In this document: in pieces, positions 30,143 through 41,056 of the stretch | Numbering within the stretch: the stretch's first letter is position 1 | Layout of the letters: every line of letters starts with the position of its first letter | Virus record (IMG/VR): IMGVR_UViG_643692022_000008 | Length of the DNA: 42,310 nt | Strand: one strand, 5' to 3' | Origin: a virus | Taxonomy: Duplodnaviria > Heunggongvirae > Uroviricota > Caudoviricetes | Notes under the pieces: model-generated | What the model was told of the DNA's origin: nothing | What the model saw: the letters and a program-made list of their open reading frames with translations, nothing else | Databases searched by the model: none | Made by a program: the position numbers and the translations under genes

Positions 30143-30840
30143 ACACTGGCTCCTTTCAGTCCGAACTTAGCTTTGATTTCTGCGATCTTCGCCAGAGCCT
30201 GAGCCCGGTTAAGTGGTCTACCGCCCATGACAGGAAGTTGTTTTACTGGTTCAGGTATAGCCTCACCACGGTTAATTCGTGCGGTCATACAGGACAGTTC
30301 ATCGGCAGCCTTGCGCCGTAATTCCGCGTCAGTCAACGCATTGGCCCGCATGTTCTGATACAGGTTGGTAACCAGCCAGTAGTGCGCGTTTGATTTCCAC
30401 GGATAAGACTCCGCATCCGGATACAGGCCTCGCTTCCGGCAATACTCGTAAACCATATCAACCAGCTCGCTGACGTTTGGCAGTCCGGCGATAACGGATG
30501 CTTCTTCCCGGCACCATGCAACAAACTGCCCGGGTGATGGCAGGAATGGTCGATTCTGCCGACGGGCTACGCGCATTCCTGCGTTAACCTGTTCCATTGT
30601 GGTGATCCCGTTTTCCCGGAAAGCCAGAACCCACTGGCGGCGGATTTCGTTCAGTTCGTTCTGATCCCGGTTAGCCAGGCTCGCAGGGAAAGTTGCCAGT
30701 AACTGGCTGAACACACCGTTGATGATCTGCGCTACCTGCTGTACCTGCGGCTTTTCGTCGTACTGTTCCAGCATATTGTTGGCGATCCGGCGCATCTGCT
30801 CACGGTCAAAGTTAACCATCTGTGCGGCGATGTTTTTCAT
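30139..30840 (-). CDS. P: Replication protein P (DnaB helicase loader)
   Basis: 233-aa protein MKNIAAQMVNFDREQMRRIANNM... essentially matching lambda P as remembered. Confidence 0.95.
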   Translation of the reverse strand: MKNIAAQMVNFDREQMRRIANNMLEQYDEKPQVQQVAQIINGVFSQLLATFPASLANRDQNELNEIRRQWVLAFRENGITTMEQVNAGMRVARRQNRPFLPSPGQFVAWCREEASVIAGLPNVSELVDMVYEYCRKRGLYPDAESYPWKSNAHYWLVTNLYQNMRANALTDAELRRKAADELSCMTARINRGEAIPEPVKQLPVMGGRPLNRAQALAKIAEIKAKFGLKGASV

Positions 30841-31856
30841 AAATCCACCCCGTAAATCCAGTCAGTGTTCGTCAGGTCGAGTTTTGGTTTGCCGGCTGTC
30901 ACGCCAGCCTGTTGCTTGTTTCGGTTGATTTCGAGCTGGGTCCACTTGTCGCGGAGTTTGGCCGGACTCAGCACGTTACCGGACCAGAAGTTGTCCTGGC
31001 ATGCCCAGCGGAACAGTACACACATATCGCGGTGGTTACGCCCGTCACGCTCACGCATCAGGCGGATATCGTTAGCCCACCCTGCAAAATTCGGTTTTCT
31101 GGCTGATGGCGCGATGGTCTTCACCATGTCAAACATCCACTCTGCGGCGGTCAGGTCTTCTGCTGTCCCCCACTTGCTGCCGCTCTGAATCGCAGCATCC
31201 GGTTTCACCACAGGAAGGTCGTTTTCTGGCTGGTCAGAGTATTCGCCAGAATTCTCGGACGAATAAGGTTTTATATTGTCTTTTGTTAGTTTGTCTTTTG
31301 TGTTTACCTGATTCGGGTAAGTGCCTTTACCTGATTTGGGTAAACTTTTCTTACCTGATTCAGGTAAATTTACCTCTTTCAGGTAAACTTTATTTTTCTT
31401 ACCTGATTCGGGTAATGTTGACCATTCACTGACCACATTATTAATGCCTATATTCCGCCCGCTCTGAATAAAAATCCCACGCTTTACCAGAACACTTTTT
31501 GCAGCAGAACACTTGTGCGGCAATATCCCGGTCAACTCGGAAAGTTGCTCGTTGCTCACCCAATCCAGTTTTTTATTAAAGCCATATGTTTTGCGCATGA
31601 CAGCCAGGAAGACCAGAAGCTGGTGCTGTGTTAATCCGGCCAGCATTACAGCTTCCAGCAACTCATTTGCAATGCGCGTATAACCATCATCGAGATCTGC
31701 CACGCGCGGCTCCTTTTGTGCCGCATCCGGCACAGGAAAATTGAATATCTCAGCAGTGTTTGCCATAATTCCTCCCGCAATGAGTGTGTTACGATTTGCA
31801 CCTGAAAGTCGGTTCTGTTCCCGCAGACCGACTTTCGCCATTTTTAAACCTGTCAT
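30837..31856 (-). CDS. O: Replication initiator O (lambda O-like C-terminus, distinct N-terminal DNA-binding domain)
   Basis: 339-aa ORF overlapping P; contains the iteron array and AT-rich tract internally; C-terminal region resembles lambda O. Confidence 0.9.
   Translation of the reverse strand: MTGLKMAKVGLREQNRLSGANRNTLIAGGIMANTAEIFNFPVPDAAQKEPRVADLDDGYTRIANELLEAVMLAGLTQHQLLVFLAVMRKTYGFNKKLDWVSNEQLSELTGILPHKCSAAKSVLVKRGIFIQSGRNIGINNVVSEWSTLPESGKKNKVYLKEVNLPESGKKSLPKSGKGTYPNQVNTKDKLTKDNIKPYSSENSGEYSDQPENDLPVVKPDAAIQSGSKWGTAEDLTAAEWMFDMVKTIAPSARKPNFAGWANDIRLMRERDGRNHRDMCVLFRWACQDNFWSGNVLSPAKLRDKWTQLEINRNKQQAGVTAGKPKLDLTNTDWIYGVDL
31304..31415. repeat. Replication origin iterons inside the O gene
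   Basis: Five ~17-bp copies of TTACCTGATTCGGGTAA-like repeats at 31304-31320, 31327-31343, 31351-31367, 31369-31386 and 31399-31415, followed in the direction of O transcription by an AT-rich tract (31261-31300). Confidence 0.85.
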
Positions 31857-35991: not shown

Positions 35992-36288
35992 ATGAACGCT
36001 TATTACATTCAGGATCGTCTTGAGGCTCAGAGCTGGGCGCGTCACTACCAGCAGATCGCCCGTGAAGAGAAAGAGGCAGAACTGGCAGACGACATGGAAA
36101 AAGGCCTGCCCCAGCACCTGTTTGAATCGCTATGCATCGATCATTTGCAACGCCACGGGGCCAGCAAAAAAGCCATTACCCGTGCATTTGATGACGATGT
36201 TGAGTTTCAGGAGCGCATGGCAGAACACATCCGGTACATGGTTGAAACCATTGCTCACCACCAGGTTGATATTGATTCAGAGGTATAA
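35992..36288 (+). CDS. gam: Gam (RecBCD inhibitor), short GamS-length form
   Basis: 98-aa protein [42 protein letters not shown]... matches lambda Gam; in-frame stop at 35935-35937 upstream. Confidence 0.85.
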
Positions 36289-36293
36289 AACGG

Positions 36294-37079
36294 ATGAGTA
36301 CAGCACTCGCAACGCTGGCTGGGAAGCTGGCTGAACGTGTCGGCATGGATTCTGTCGACCCACAGGAACTGATCACCACTCTTCGCCAGACGGCATTTAA
36401 AGGTGATGCCAGCGATGCGCAGTTCATCGCATTGTTGATCGTCGCCAACCAGTACGGCCTTAATCCGTGGACGAAAGAAATTTACGCCTTCCCTGACAAG
36501 CAGAACGGCATCGTTCCGGTGGTGGGCGTTGATGGCTGGTCCCGTATCATCAATGAAAACCAGCAGTTTGATGGCATGGACTTTGAGCAGGACAATGAAT
36601 CATGTACATGCCGGATTTACCGCAAGGACCGTAATCATCCGATCTGCGTTACCGAGTGGATGGATGAATGCCGCCGCGAACCATTCAAAACCCGCGAAGG
36701 CAGAGAAATCACGGGGCCGTGGCAGTCGCATCCCAAACGGATGTTACGGCATAAAGCCATGATTCAGTGTGCCCGTCTCGCCTTCGGATTTGCTGGTATC
36801 TATGACAAGGATGAAGCCGAGCGCATTGTCGAAAATACCGCATACACTGCAGAACGTCAGCCGGAACGCGACATCACTCCGGTTAACGATGAAACCATGC
36901 AGGAGATTAACACTCTGCTGATCGCCCTGGATAAAACATGGGATGACGACTTATTGCCGCTCTGTTCCCAGATATTTCGCCGCGACATTCGCGCATCGTC
37001 AGAACTGACACAGGCCGAAGCAGTGAAAGCTCTTGGATTCCTGAAACAGAAAGCCACTGAGCAGAAGGTGGCAGCATGA
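36294..37079 (+). CDS. bet: Bet (Red-beta single-strand annealing protein)
   Basis: 261-aa protein [43 protein letters not shown]... matches lambda Bet. Confidence 0.95.
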
Positions 37080-37756
37080 CACCGGACATTATCCTGCAGC
37101 GTACCGGGATCGACGTGAGAGCTGTCGAACAGGGGGATGATGCATGGCACAAATTACGGCTCGGCGTCATCACAGCTTCAGAAGTTCATAACGTAATAGC
37201 AAAACCCCGATCCGGAAAGAAATGGCCTGATATGAAAATGTCCTACTTCCACACCCTGCTTGCCGAGGTTTGCACCGGTGTGGCTCCGGAAGTTAACGCT
37301 AAAGCACTGGCCTGGGGAAAACAGTACGAGAACGACGCCAGAGCCCTGTTTGAGTTCACTTCCGGCGTGAATGTTACTGAATCCCCGATCATCTATCGAG
37401 ACGAGACTATGCGTACCGCCTGCTCTCCCGATGGTTTATGCAGTGACGGCAATGGTCTTGAGCTGAAATGCCCGTTTACCTCCCGGGATTTCATGAAGTT
37501 CCGGCTCGGTGGTTTCGAGGCCATAAAGTCGGCTTATATGGCCCAGGTGCAGTACAGCATGTGGGTAACGCGAAAAAATGCCTGGTACTTTGCCAACTAT
37601 GACCCGCGTATGAAGCGTGAAGGCCTGCATTATGTCGTGGTTGAGCGGGATGAAAAGTACATGGCGAGTTTTGACGAAATGGTGCCGGAATTCATCGAAA
37701 AAATGGACGAGGCACTGGCTGAAATTGGTTTTGTATTTGGGGAGCAATGGCGATGA
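37076..37756 (+). CDS. exo: Exo (Red-alpha 5'-3' exonuclease)
   Basis: 226-aa protein [44 protein letters not shown]... matches lambda Exo. Confidence 0.95.
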
Positions 37757-37914
37757 AGCATCCTCACGATAATATCCGGGTAGGCGCGATCACTTTCGTC
37801 TACTCCGTTACAAAGCGAGGCTGGGTATTTCCCGGCCTTTCTGTTATCAGAAATCCACTGAAAGCACAGCGGCTGGCTGAGGAGATAAATAATAAACGGG
37901 GGCTGTATGACTGA
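37753..37914 (+). CDS. Small hypothetical protein (orf60a-like position)
   Basis: 53-codon [21 protein letters not shown]...; ATG overlaps the exo stop and its stop overlaps the methyltransferase start. Confidence 0.4.
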
Positions 37915-38464
37915 TTTCACCGGAAGCAATACTCCTGCCGAACATCGCGACAGCTGGCGCACACCACCAGAGATTTTTGCTGCGCTGAATGCAGAGTTCG
38001 ATTTTCAACTTGATGCTGCAGCCAACGAAAAAAACCGACTATGTCGGCTTTTTATCTCACAGGAGCAGAACACATTAACCACTTCATGGCCTGAAGCAAT
38101 GGGATATGCCTCTGGTTATGTCTGGTTGAATCCACCATACAGCAATATTTCCCCTTTTGTGAAAAAGGCAGCCACTGAAAACAAATTCAGTAGTGTGGGA
38201 TGTGTAATGTTATTGCCTGCTGACACATCTGTCGGATGGTTTCATGAAGCGATACAAACCGCCAGTGAGGTCAGATTCATCACGGCAGGACGACTGGCAT
38301 TTATTAACCCACTCACCGGGAAACCCGTCAGTGGAAATAATAAAGGCTCGATGCTCATTATCTGGCACCCATACCCCCGTACACACTGCCACTTTACGAC
38401 CGTTGATCGTGGCGAGTTGATGGCGTTCGGCTCAAGGATTCTTGCCCGTCGGGAGGCTGCATGA
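37907..38464 (+). CDS. DNA N6-adenine methyltransferase (phage Dam-like, NPPY motif)
   Basis: 185-aa ORF with DAAAN motif (FQLDAAANEKN) and catalytic NPPY (WLNPPYS). Confidence 0.8.
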   Translation: MTDFTGSNTPAEHRDSWRTPPEIFAALNAEFDFQLDAAANEKNRLCRLFISQEQNTLTTSWPEAMGYASGYVWLNPPYSNISPFVKKAATENKFSSVGCVMLLPADTSVGWFHEAIQTASEVRFITAGRLAFINPLTGKPVSGNNKGSMLIIWHPYPRTHCHFTTVDRGELMAFGSRILARREAA

Positions 38465-38544
38465 CAACCACGGAATGCATTTTTCTGGCAGCGGGCTTCA
38501 TATTCTGCGTGCTTATGCTTGCCGACATGGGGCTTGTTCAATGA
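38461..38544 (+). CDS. Putative 27-aa hydrophobic peptide (MTTTECIFLAAGFIFCVLMLADMGLVQ)
   Basis: ATG overlaps the methyltransferase stop (ATGA 38461-38464) and its stop overlaps the next ATG (38541-38544); single predicted TM helix. Not in the ORF track (<60 aa). Confidence 0.35.
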   Translation: MTTTECIFLAAGFIFCVLMLADMGLVQ

Positions 38545-38756
38545 CACCTCAGCAGGAAAACACCCTTCGCAGCATTGCCCGTCAGGCTAATTCTGAAATC
38601 AAAAAAGCCAGACAGCAGTGTCCGGATAAAAACGTCGATGACATTTGCCGTAGCGTACTGAAGAAGCACCGCGAAACAGTAACGATGATGGGATTCACAC
38701 CGACTCATTTAAGCCTGGCGATCGGCATGTTAAACGGCGTCTTTAAGGAACGGTGA
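38541..38756 (+). CDS. Hypothetical small phage protein
   Basis: 71-aa ORF starting at ATG 38541 (MTPQQENTLRSIARQ...), translationally coupled to the upstream peptide ORF. Confidence 0.5.
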   Translation: MTPQQENTLRSIARQANSEIKKARQQCPDKNVDDICRSVLKKHRETVTMMGFTPTHLSLAIGMLNGVFKER

Positions 38757-38854
38757 GCATGAAAAACAAAATCATCATGGAGCTACAGGCTCCTTTTTTA
38801 TTATTCGCATTCACCCTCAAGCGTATTAACCAACAATTCAGGGATTAATGAAAG

Positions 38855-39073
38855 ATGGCAGACATCATTGATTCAGCATCAGAAATTGAAGAATTACAGC
38901 GCAACACAGCAATAAAAATGCGCCGCCTGAACCACCAGGCTATATCTGCCACTCATTGTTGTGAGTGTGGCGATCCGATAGATGAACGAAGACGCCTGGC
39001 CGTTCAGGGTTGTCGGACTTGTGCAAGTTGCCAGGAGGAGATCGAACTTAAGAACAAACAATGGGGACTGTGA
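38855..39073 (+). CDS. TraR/DksA-family C4 zinc-finger protein
   Basis: 72-aa protein with CxxC...CxxC (CCECGDPI...CRTCASC). Confidence 0.75.
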   Translation: MADIIDSASEIEELQRNTAIKMRRLNHQAISATHCCECGDPIDERRRLAVQGCRTCASCQEEIELKNKQWGL

Positions 39074-39120
39074 TGGCCTCAAAGCAGCAAATTTCAACAT
39101 CGTCCAATTGAGGTGTAAAA

Positions 39121-39399
39121 ATGTTCAGAATCATTTTTCCTAACACCTGGTACGTCGATCACCACGGCACTCCCTGCAAAATCCTGCGTTCTACCCACAA
39201 CAAAGTTCACTACATCCGAAAAGGCAGAACATGTATCGCCAGCATGTTCCGATTTAATCATGACTTTGAACCTGTGAATAAAGCTGATGCAGATCGGATA
39301 GCAGAAGAGATCGAAACGGCAGAACACATTAAGAAGTTACGTGACATGCGTTCAAAAAGCAGAGGTAACCATGGAATCATACAGCCTCACACTCGATGA
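39121..39399 (+). CDS. Hypothetical phage protein
   Basis: 92-aa ORF upstream of xis. Confidence 0.45.
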   Translation: MFRIIFPNTWYVDHHGTPCKILRSTHNKVHYIRKGRTCIASMFRFNHDFEPVNKADADRIAEEIETAEHIKKLRDMRSKSRGNHGIIQPHTR

Positions 39400-39467
39400 G
39401 GCCTGCCAGCTTCTCAAGATATCCAGACCTACAGCAATCATGTCAATCCAATAAATGGAGACTCCAA

Positions 39468-39815
39468 GTGGAAGAAGAAATCTTCACTCGTGAAGAGGCT
39501 GCGTCGTATCTGAAGGTAGACAAAGGCACTATCACGCAGTGGATACGAAGTGGACGACTTCAAGCCGCAAAGATAAATCCAGATAAACCTAAAAGCCCAT
39601 ATCGCATTTGCAAGTCAGACTGCATTGCGGCGCTTAAGTCTGTGAGACACAATAGCGCGGTGAATGCGGTTGATGTGCAGGAGGTTAAAGCATGTCAATC
39701 AAACTGCGCGGTGGCACATGGCACTGCGATTTCGTCGCGCCAGATGGATCAAGAGTTAGACGCTCTCTTGAAACATCGGACAAAAGGCAAGCGCAAGAAC
39801 TTCACGATCGTCTGA
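39468..39815 (+). CDS. xis: Excisionase-like HTH protein (Xis)
   Basis: Probable GTG start at 39468 with GGAG RBS; HTH (TREEAASYLKVDKGTITQWIRSGRL); overlaps the integrase start, as xis and int overlap in lambda. The exact stop is uncertain. Confidence 0.6.
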   Translation: MEEEIFTREEAASYLKVDKGTITQWIRSGRLQAAKINPDKPKSPYRICKSDCIAALKSVRHNSAVNAVDVQEVKACQSNCAVAHGTAISSRQMDQELDALLKHRTKGKRKNFTIV

Positions 39816-40852
39816 AAGCAGAAGCGTGGAGAGTAAAAAATCTCGGGGAATCACCGAAAAAGCTATTCAAGGAAGCCTGCATACGGTGGCTGCGTGAGAA
39901 ATCGGATAAGAAGTCCATTGATGATGACAAGAGCATTATATCGTTCTGGATGTTGCACTTCAGAGAAACCATTCTCTCTGACATAACAACAGAAAAAATA
40001 ATGGAGGCGGTAGACGGGATGGAAAACCGCCGCCATCGCCTGAACTGGGAGATGAGCCGGGACAGGTGTTTGCGGCTTGGCAAGCCAGTGCCGGAGTATA
40101 AACCAAAGCTGGCAAGCAAAGGAACGAAGACGCGGCATCTGGCAATACTTCGCGCTATTCTCAATATGGCTGTTGAATGGGGATGGCTTGACAGGGCGCC
40201 CAAAATATCAACACCACGCGTTAAGAATGGACGAATCAGATGGCTTACAGAGGAGGAATCGAAGCGCCTGTTTGCAGAAATTGCTCCTCATTTCTTCCCT
40301 GTGGTCATGTTTGCAATCACGACAGGCCTTCGTCGTTCCAACGTTACAGACCTTGAGTGGTCACAGGTCGATCTGGATAAGAAAATGGCATGGATGCACC
40401 CTGATGAAACAAAAGCTGGCAATGCGATCGGAGTTCCTCTTAACGAAACCGCATGCCAGATATTAAGAAAACAGCAGGGGCTCCATAAGAGATGGGTATT
40501 TGTCCACACCAAACCTGCCTACCGAAGCGACGGAACAAAAACAGCAGCGGTAAGGAAGATGAGAACCGACAGCAACAAGGCATGGAAGGGAGCGTTAAAG
40601 CGGGCAGGCATTAGCAACTTCCGCTTCCATGACCTGAGGCATACCTGGGCAAGCTGGCTGGTTCAGTCCGGTGTCTCTCTTCTTGCACTTAAAGAGATGG
40701 GAGGATGGGAAACTCTCGAAATGGTTCAAAGATACGCCCACCTTTCAGCTGGGCATCTCACCGAGCACGCGAGCAAAATCGATGCGATTATAAGTCGCAA
40801 TGGCACAAATACGGCACAGGAGGAGAACGTAGTTTACTTAAATGCGAGGTAA
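39692..40852 (+). CDS. int: Tyrosine site-specific integrase
   Basis: 386-aa ORF ending 14 bp before the tRNA 3' end; C-terminal catalytic region [10 protein letters not shown]...RYAHL. Confidence 0.92.
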   Translation: MSIKLRGGTWHCDFVAPDGSRVRRSLETSDKRQAQELHDRLKAEAWRVKNLGESPKKLFKEACIRWLREKSDKKSIDDDKSIISFWMLHFRETILSDITTEKIMEAVDGMENRRHRLNWEMSRDRCLRLGKPVPEYKPKLASKGTKTRHLAILRAILNMAVEWGWLDRAPKISTPRVKNGRIRWLTEEESKRLFAEIAPHFFPVVMFAITTGLRRSNVTDLEWSQVDLDKKMAWMHPDETKAGNAIGVPLNETACQILRKQQGLHKRWVFVHTKPAYRSDGTKTAAVRKMRTDSNKAWKGALKRAGISNFRFHDLRHTWASWLVQSGVSLLALKEMGGWETLEMVQRYAHLSAGHLTEHASKIDAIISRNGTNTAQEENVVYLNAR

Positions 40853-40866
40853 CTTATTGATTTAGA

Positions 40867-40942
40867 TGGTGCCGATAATAGGAGTCGAACCTACGACCTT
40901 CGCATTACGAATGCGCTGCTCTACCAACTGAGCTATATCGGC
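40867..40942 (-). tRNA. thrW: tRNA-Thr (anticodon CGU), thrW-like; 3' 46 nt form the att core
   Basis: Reverse complement reads GCCGATATAGCTCAGTTGGTAGAGCAGCGCATTCGTAATGCGAAGGTCGTAGGTTCGACTCCTATTATCGGCACCA: cloverleaf with CGT anticodon and encoded CCA. Confidence 0.95.
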
Positions 40943-41056
40943 CCTGAAAGGACATGTTCACGAGCGTGAATCACGGTGGACAAGGTTAAAACTAACCGGG
41001 CGATGCGTCAATGGCCTTGTGAATCAAATGGCTACTTTTGCATCACCCGGTTTTAT

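Follow-up and report, generated by a model that had tools for sequence, protein, structure and literature searches.

A putative micropeptide gene between a phage adenine methylase and orf61 in the early-left operon of a lambdoid prophage

When a very short open reading frame (ORF) is held between two longer genes by overlapping stop and start codons, is it a gene in its own right? This question is raised by the IMG/VR virus record IMGVR_UViG_643692022_000008, a stretch of 42,310 nucleotides (nt) from a member of the Caudoviricetes that was analyzed at its full length and is called the window here. In it, a 27-codon ORF lies between the gene of an N6-adenine DNA methyltransferase (hereafter the methylase) and orf61, which encodes a protein of 71 amino acids (aa). 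A preliminary description, made from the sequence alone, had placed these three ORFs and joined them by two ATGA overlaps; we re-read the coordinates and both overlaps from the sequence and found them all as given. We consider it likely, taking its parts jointly, that this is a lambdoid early-left (pL) operon with a methylase as cargo, an overlooked 27-codon peptide gene and a 71-aa Orf61, translated as a chain. Of note here are the overlooked micropeptide gene, which is shared by lambda, the corrected Orf61, and a conserved arrangement of methylase, transmembrane (TM) micropeptide and Orf61.

Results

Selection on the 27-codon frame

We searched for DNA homologues of the 27-codon ORF with blastn in distant mode and with tblastn, and every match was at least 92.9% identical, with no diverged ones. 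As no homologue of the peptide fell below 92% identity, a dN/dS estimate over deep divergence was impossible, and we therefore tested selection on polymorphism, taking 106 haplotypes of IMG/VR and of phage records and comparing the counts with simulation. The frame of the 27-aa peptide (MTTTECIFLAAGFIFCVLMLADMGLVQ) had 16 synonymous (S) and 15 nonsynonymous (N) changes where 8.5 S were expected (P = 0.003), a ratio of nonsynonymous to synonymous polymorphism (pN/pS) of 0.27; for comparison, orf61 itself had 24 S and 25 N (pN/pS 0.29). The frame that would extend orf61 upstream across the same stretch had 9 S and 21 N (P = 0.48, pN/pS 0.73), and the third frame 6 S and 24 N (P = 0.92). Among the three frames, the excess of synonymous change was confined to that of the 27-aa peptide. 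Eight of the nine changes present in at least three haplotypes were synonymous in this frame, and the ORF was intact in 105 of the 106 haplotypes.

The product of this frame is strongly hydrophobic. With a grand average of hydropathy (GRAVY) of 1.62, it ranked first among the 198 small ATG-initiated ORFs that the window has in its six frames; over residues 6–26 the Kyte-Doolittle values average 2.42, with one aspartate (D22) inside the stretch. The preliminary description had read the product as a single hydrophobic helix, a prediction that stands, in that the hydrophobic stretch is membrane-spanning in length and the frame is under purifying selection. We measured the strength of Shine-Dalgarno (SD) sequences as the duplex energy with the 3′ end of 16S rRNA; the start of the peptide ORF gave −10.3 kcal/mol, the strongest of the starts tested, with −5.6 in phages of the orf63 type and a median of −2.55 for all ATGs of the window. 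When the sequence is shuffled with both ATGA ends fixed, 30% of shuffles give an open frame, so a 27-codon frame between such ends is not rare by itself. Its hydrophobicity, SD strength and frame-specific purifying selection, on the other hand, are not expected by chance. The 27-codon ORF thus looks like a real gene, and its product is a predicted single-helix membrane peptide.

Distribution and annotation of the peptide ORF

Lambda encodes the identical peptide (NC_001416, 30925–31008, complement), as do 933W, VT2-Sakai, most lambdoid prophages of E. coli and about 175 phage records. The preliminary description had tied the peptide to the methylase, a link that these records dissolve: in lambda and 933W, as in about 2,900 E. 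coli genomes, the identical peptide comes after orf63, with the same ATGA junction, which rules out that the peptide is methylase-specific. The ORF is left unannotated by the Prokaryotic Genome Annotation Pipeline (PGAP) and in the records of lambda, 933W, phage 21 and phage 434, while a few GenBank and UniProt entries give the peptide as a hypothetical protein. The ORF is hardly ever annotated because its stretch is taken up by an “orf61” with a wrong start. The peptide sequence was absent from the literature that we searched.

A methylase in the orf63 slot

The three ORFs lie in the exo-xis segment of a lambdoid pL operon, whose genes run in the order bet, exo, orf60a, cargo, 27-aa ORF, orf61, TraR/orf73 and int (Table 1). 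Outside the methylase stretch, its DNA is 96–98% identical to that of lambda-like and Shiga toxin (Stx) phages. When aligned with phage 4A7 and lambda, homology runs up to the ATG of the cargo, is lost there, and returns at the ATGA that opens the 27-codon ORF, and in both of these phages the interval is filled by orf63 (DUF1382) instead of the methylase. A comparison of junctions showed that the cargo genes all share one start ATG, which follows AAACGGGGG(G)CTGT. The methylase is swapped-in cargo in what is the orf63 slot of lambda and most E. coli prophages. A survey of 5,426 complete E. coli genomes gave orf63 with the peptide in 2,887, the Dam version in 244 and a 250-aa cargo in 95; the loci that we fetched included about 80 with orf63 and the peptide and about 20 with Dam and the peptide.

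The 250-aa cargo, also present in Shigella phage SfI, matches phrog_887, “queuine tRNA-ribosyltransferase” (4e-99), has no match to a Pfam family and may be a DNA-modification enzyme. It displaces the 27-codon ORF and alters the first codons of orf61. A further occupant of the slot, a DndB/DGQHR-family protein, was found in Escherichia sp. E1V33 (L009). In this locus, a 14-nt deletion relative to the window (at L009 1423–1460) moves an ATG with a strong SD sequence into the frame of orf61, and the outcome is a 93-aa Orf61 and the destruction of the peptide.

The methylase itself is ordinary and already named correctly by PGAP. It matches PF05869 (Pfam Dam) over positions 1–168 of the 169 of the profile (8.8e-57; 191.9 bits, cutoff 28.1) and the NCBIfam equivalog TIGR01712 with 168 bits (cutoff 97.05). 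The NPPY motif is at residues 75–78 and LDAAA at residues 35–39, within which DAAA (36–39) is presumably the S-adenosylmethionine (AdoMet)-binding motif. The top PADLOC model was oMTase, “orphan methyltransferase.” We found no second methylase-like ORF in the whole window, and since the neighbors of the methylase (orf60a, the 27-aa ORF and orf61) encode small phage proteins and no nuclease, it is an orphan. With the family match running its full length, the motifs intact and a nuclease neighbor absent, we could confirm the earlier identification of an orphan N6-adenine methyltransferase with an NPPY motif. Like T1 Dam and HP1 Dam (the PF05869/TIGR01712 type), it is small and has neither a separate target-recognition domain nor a partner nuclease.

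At more than 95% identity, the methylase occurred in one of 50,697 phage records (PhiR30_1). A 46.6%-identical paralogue is found in the nin region of the lambdoid phages HK97 and VT2-Sakai, whereas the window methylase sits in the exo-xis slot; the methylases of T1-like phages are 37–47% identical to it, and a PDB sequence search returned no relative. A characterized relative, M.EcoT1Dam, methylates GATC (PMC4996451). By analogy, the target of the window methylase is probably GATC-like; our literature search for the target of PF05869 returned nothing beyond the statement on M.EcoT1Dam. The virion DNA of lambda and P22 is under-methylated by the host Dam. Orphan methylases of phages are known for anti-restriction functions, and on this general ground such a role, raised in the preliminary description, would be plausible here, but our analysis lends it no support.

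Table 1. Features of the exo-xis region (window positions) and of other occupants of the slot (positions in the locus named)
Feature	Positions	Strand	Remarks
bet	36294–37079	+	joined to exo by overlap at 37076
exo (lambda exonuclease, 226 aa)	37076–37756	+	Pfam YqaJ 3.4e-30; homologous records say exonuclease
orf60a (DUF1317)	37753–37914	+	PF07026 1e-33; ATGA overlap with exo at 37753
N6-adenine DNA methyltransferase, 185 aa	37907–38464	+	PF05869/TIGR01712; start overlaps last 8 nt of orf60a
Shine-Dalgarno sequence GGGAGG	38451–38456	+	within 3′ end of methylase gene; 4 nt 5′ of ATG of 27-codon ORF
27-codon ORF (putative gene)	38461–38544	+	ATGA overlaps 38461–38464 and 38541–38544
orf61, 71 aa	38541–38756	+	phrog_303 match
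29-codon ORF (31 codons counted from GTG 38753)	38759–38848	+	hypothetical protein in some phage records
TraR/DksA-type zinc-finger protein (lambda orf73 homologue)	38855–39073	+	PF01258 1.2e-08; downstream backbone
DUF4222 protein			listed between TraR/DksA gene and integrase
Tyrosine integrase	39692–40852	+	prophage end marker
tRNA gene	40870–40942	−	after integrase, at prophage end
250-aa cargo	L111 1241–1993; phage SfI, L242 1241–1993
DndB/DGQHR-family protein in slot	L009 371–1438		Escherichia sp. E1V33

Overlapping stop and start codons (ATGA or short) are present at bet/exo, exo/orf60a and orf60a/methylase as well, and the chaining therefore belongs to the whole operon and not to the three genes alone. 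According to a review, ribosome profiling of lambda gave a 31-aa ORF in the exo-xis region, and this may be the 29- or 31-codon ORF downstream of orf61. Inside the 29-codon ORF there is a terminator-like hairpin (38779–38793, GGAGCTACAGGCTCC followed by T6).

Methylases upstream of Orf61 in distant phages

We collected distant Orf61 homologues by tblastn, fetched their loci, and counted methylases within 700 nt upstream. A methylase was found just upstream of an Orf61-family gene in about 60 of 76 loci, which fall into three clades with Orf61 identities of 31–49%. In enterobacterial temperate phages, adenine methylases of three families fill this position repeatedly, often with small TM ORFs in between. 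Temperate phages of Klebsiella and Yersinia have Orf61 homologues directly downstream of DNA methylases. The 36 distinct loci of the Yersinia type included 27 with a methylase (PF05869 10, MT-A70 8, D12 7, C5 2) and 28 with a small TM-like ORF in between. Another 36 distinct loci were of the P0127 type, 30 with a methylase (PF05869 15, MT-A70 12, D12 3), and a TM-like ORF was flagged in five, three of these after a methylase. In 28 P0127-type loci, the stop codon of the methylase lies 1 nt 5′ of the Orf61 start or overlaps it. The Klebsiella type comprised four distinct loci, of which three have a methylase with a 4-nt overlap (MT-A70 2, C5 1) and none a TM-like ORF.

Yersinia phage vB_YenM_29.18 is an example of the full arrangement, with an unannotated 31-codon hydrophobic ORF between a D12-class methylase, which it overlaps by ATGA, and an Orf61 homologue. 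The small TM ORFs of the Yersinia type form at least four sequence families; all three that were analyzed for selection are under purifying selection (pN/pS 0.22–0.46, with pS up to 0.47), and searches of PHROGs and Pfam gave no family match for them. We saw no similarity between the lambda peptide and these ORFs; we therefore rejected homology and take them to be its analogues.

Other features of the distant loci were also recorded. Some Yersinia-type loci (L247, L255, L257, L268, L272 and L277, at about 2183–2497) have a gene for a protein of about 100 aa with a ClpX-type C4 zinc finger (PF06689) between the TM ORF and the Orf61 homologue, which ends 3 nt before the start of the latter. In the T1-like Drexlerviridae phages tunus, aalborv and mar001J1 (L317–L319, 1864–2222), an Orf61-like protein of 76 aa, which shares about 32% identity with P0127, is encoded near terminase genes, and its gene is preceded, via an overlapping stop and start, by that of a hydrophilic 42-aa protein. 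Single-protein scans with the proteins P0123 and P0117 gave no matches.

Does the adjacency of methylase and Orf61 mean that the two work together? The site could instead be a recombination hot spot for morons, the adjacency being without functional meaning, and we put this at slightly under an even chance. The cargo is swapped precisely between conserved flanks, and the contents of the slot are unrelated to one another (orf63, Dam, the 250-aa phrog_887 protein and the DndB-like protein), with orf63 in the slot of most E. coli prophages. A hot spot would also agree with the PF05869 paralogue being elsewhere, in the nin region of HK97 and VT2-Sakai, with Orf61-like genes of T1-like and Vibrio phages that have no methylase neighbor, and with DNA-modification genes expressed early being common phage cargo. 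It sits less well with an adjacency that recurs in three clades and with three methylase families, or with the non-methylase cargos, which match families related to DNA modification (DndB-like; the phrog_887 match). In addition, the TraR-like gene has moved upstream of the methylase in the P0127 type, and the adjacency of methylase and Orf61 therefore outlives rearrangement. Overall, a real functional link of the peptide or Orf61 with the methylase appears rather doubtful to us. The more specific proposal that Orf61 and small TM peptides are functional partners of orphan phage adenine methylases (as regulator, targeting factor or membrane tether), in a conserved three-part DNA-modification module of enterobacterial temperate phages of which the lambda derivative (orf63, peptide and Orf61) has lost the enzyme, is unlikely on present evidence.

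Translation and possible function of the peptide

The chained overlaps had been taken to indicate a co-translated unit, and the overlaps together with the SD energies do suggest that the three genes are arranged for translational coupling. N antitermination on pL would give readthrough, so that all three products would be made early after induction or infection. Ribosomes that end at the methylase stop would restart on the overlapping ATG of the peptide ORF, aided by GGGAGG, and the peptide would insert into the inner membrane. A second restart at the next ATGA would lead into orf61, whose own ribosome-binding site is weak and which is probably translated by ribosomes that reinitiate after the 27-codon ORF. 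The methylase would modify adenines of the replicating phage DNA and of the host DNA.

The preliminary description had also raised the possibility that the peptide is a membrane-active toxin or division inhibitor, and we now regard this as improbable. In favor of it, the peptide is short and strongly hydrophobic, and Kil too is encoded in the early-left operon; prophages of this type have their Kil homologue upstream of gam. In Phi24B, removal of the whole exo-xis region led to less induction of degP (−3.0 log2), htpX (−2.4) and heat-shock chaperones post-infection (PMC10789677, Table 4), an effect that is not specific to the peptide ORF: it would fit a membrane-stressing or aggregation-prone product and is a loose hint, not assignable to one ORF. 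The peptide had no hit in Pfam, PHROG or NCBIfam, Kil, DicB and toxin families included. Unlike the genes of type I toxins, its ORF has no promoter of its own (no promoter-like site was found on the plus strand) and no antisense RNA family, as a scan of positions 36000–41000 against Rfam returned nothing but a tRNA. Published deletions of orf61 replaced the annotated ORF and gave mild regulatory phenotypes only (PMC6213356); because it was the annotated ORF that was replaced, the peptide gene was removed too.

Slightly less probable again is that the 27-codon ORF is a translational relay to the weak start of orf61, with the peptide sequence itself having no function. The ATGA overlaps at both ends and the weak SD sequence of orf61 are what a relay would have, natural variants dispense with the peptide, and many distant loci couple orf61 straight to the methylase with no ORF in between. 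A relay would accept any residue change, yet the frame is constrained and its common polymorphisms are nearly all synonymous. Nor would a relay call for the most hydrophobic small ORF of the window, or for purifying selection on the unrelated TM ORFs at the same position elsewhere.

The length of Orf61

The true length of Orf61 is 71 aa, as judged from several features of its sequence. The 71-aa protein matches phrog_303 (4.7e-34) at profile positions 23–93, and synteny agrees with the Orf61 family, as the gene lies between the cargo slot and the TraR-like gene. An exhaustive HMMER search gave about 20 distant homologues of 69–75 aa and 31–62% identity; in all of them the start methionine is that of the 71-aa form, and they match phrog_303 from position 23 onward only. 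The orf61 start has SD energies of −4.7/−3.9, compared with −2.6 and no spacing for the ATG at 38475 that would begin a 93-aa “long orf61.” In the variant with the 250-aa cargo, a stop codon stands immediately 5′ of the methionine of the 71-aa form.

In lambda, the “orf61” record (30839–31024; L003 3140–3325, minus strand) is a composite whose start lies upstream, in a frame that overlaps the 27-codon ORF. An A-run has seven A in lambda and six in the window (38601–38606), and this insertion frameshifts the 71-aa protein; the C-terminal 60 codons of the true protein persist as a separate, unannotated ORF. The literature has used a 93-aa Orf61 for Phi24B and 933W (L0070) and called the lambda Orf61 of 61 aa “truncated” (PMC8614690).

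The 93-aa form would mean that there is no separate peptide gene and that Orf61 takes its first 22 residues from the stretch; this we judge very improbable, since the open upstream frame with its ATG, the annotation of that form in 933W, Phi24B and many GenBank records, its use in PMC8614690, its incorporation into phrog_303 and the strong SD sequence and ATG in that frame in L009 are outweighed by a frame that looks unconstrained and has nonsynonymous common polymorphisms, an ATG without a usable SD sequence, homologues that begin at the 71-aa methionine, the stop codon directly before it in the 250-aa-cargo variant, and PGAP calling the 71-aa form.

An AlphaFold2 model of the 71-aa Orf61 has three helices, with a predicted local distance difference test (pLDDT) score of 74, and a search with this fold gave no PDB match with E below 0.5. 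A homeodomain-like fold has been proposed for Orf61 (PMC8614690). We rejected “cell division protein ZapA,” the name in many NCBI records, as there was no Pfam or NCBIfam hit and no PDB fold match. The first apparently diverged Orf61 homologues were likewise discarded as assembly errors, a truncated prophage remnant or an insertion sequence (IS) insertion. One such false “diverged homologue” is in E. coli GCA_026134875.1 (L110, about 2400–2560), in which an insertion splits orf61 and the upstream flank resembles the end of a transposase gene. A scan of genome contigs with Orf61 matched mostly assemblies of unrelated bacteria (L010–L023; Shewanella, Pseudomonas, Paenibacillus, Kitasatospora, Oceanobacillus and others), many of which carry the frameshifted, lambda-type version (214 nt) on low-coverage contigs of at most about 48 kb; these look like lambda DNA contamination and were of no use for measuring divergence.

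Discussion

Several observations weigh against the account of an overlooked peptide gene in a coupled methylase–Orf61 chain. The evidence for selection consists of 31 polymorphic changes among close relatives only. As the peptide is missing in L009 and in the 250-aa-cargo variants, it is dispensable. A review that cites the lambda profiling of Liu et al. 2013 gives only a 7-aa and a 31-aa ORF as new in this region. As for the recurrence of the arrangement, loci of the Klebsiella type and most of the P0127 type have no TM ORF, T1-like virulent phages have an Orf61-like gene with neither a methylase nor a TM neighbor, and the Orf61-like genes of Vibrio phages, without methylase neighbors, are a further counter-example. 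Finally, the single-sequence AlphaFold model of the methylase is unusable (pLDDT 30.5).

The closest known system is the exo-xis region of lambda and Stx phages (orf60a-orf63-orf61-orf73-ea22), studied by the Wegrzyn and Donaldson laboratories. It has the same gene order and the same position in the pL operon, from exo to xis/int, and its DNA is 95–98% identical for orf60a, the 27-codon ORF, orf61 and the TraR-like orf73; in the window, orf63 is replaced by the Dam-family methylase and ea22 is absent. In the literature on that region, the 27-codon ORF is unrecognized and Orf61 has been taken as 93 aa or as a “truncated” 61 aa.

Small single-helix membrane proteins include AcrZ, MgtS and KdpF as well as the type I toxins TisB, Hok and Ibs. 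The peptide is like them in being below 50 aa, in having one hydrophobic helix (here predicted) and in having been missed by annotation pipelines, and unlike them in that it has no sequence similarity to any and that its gene is held by ATGA overlaps within a polycistronic operon instead of having a promoter and an antisense RNA to itself. Translational coupling by overlapping stop and start codons is known from ATGA junctions such as that of trpB/trpA. The window shares with this type the ATGA junctions, here chained, and the weak SD sequence downstream, and differs in that its middle link is a very short ORF that is itself conserved.

These findings bear on how the exo-xis region is read. 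Lambda has one of the best-studied genomes, yet its map, like those of 933W and Phi24B-type Stx phages, lacks a putative 27-codon gene that is under purifying selection between orf63 and orf61, is present in over half of the complete E. coli genomes, and is hidden under an “orf61” that is mis-started and, in lambda, also frameshifted. Phenotypes and solubility problems ascribed to Orf61 may need re-reading, given that the deletion of orf61 took out the peptide and that the long constructs carry 22 probably non-native residues. New phage cargo for DNA modification or counter-defense may be sought in the slot between orf60a and the peptide ORF, and the recurring neighborhood of methylase, TM ORF and Orf61 across Escherichia, Yersinia-type and Klebsiella-type phages gives rise to the testable idea that exo-xis genes are connected to DNA modification. 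If the proposal of a partner module were true, it would provide a first mechanistic handle on the long-unexplained exo-xis genes and would put one more protein-coding gene on the lambda map.

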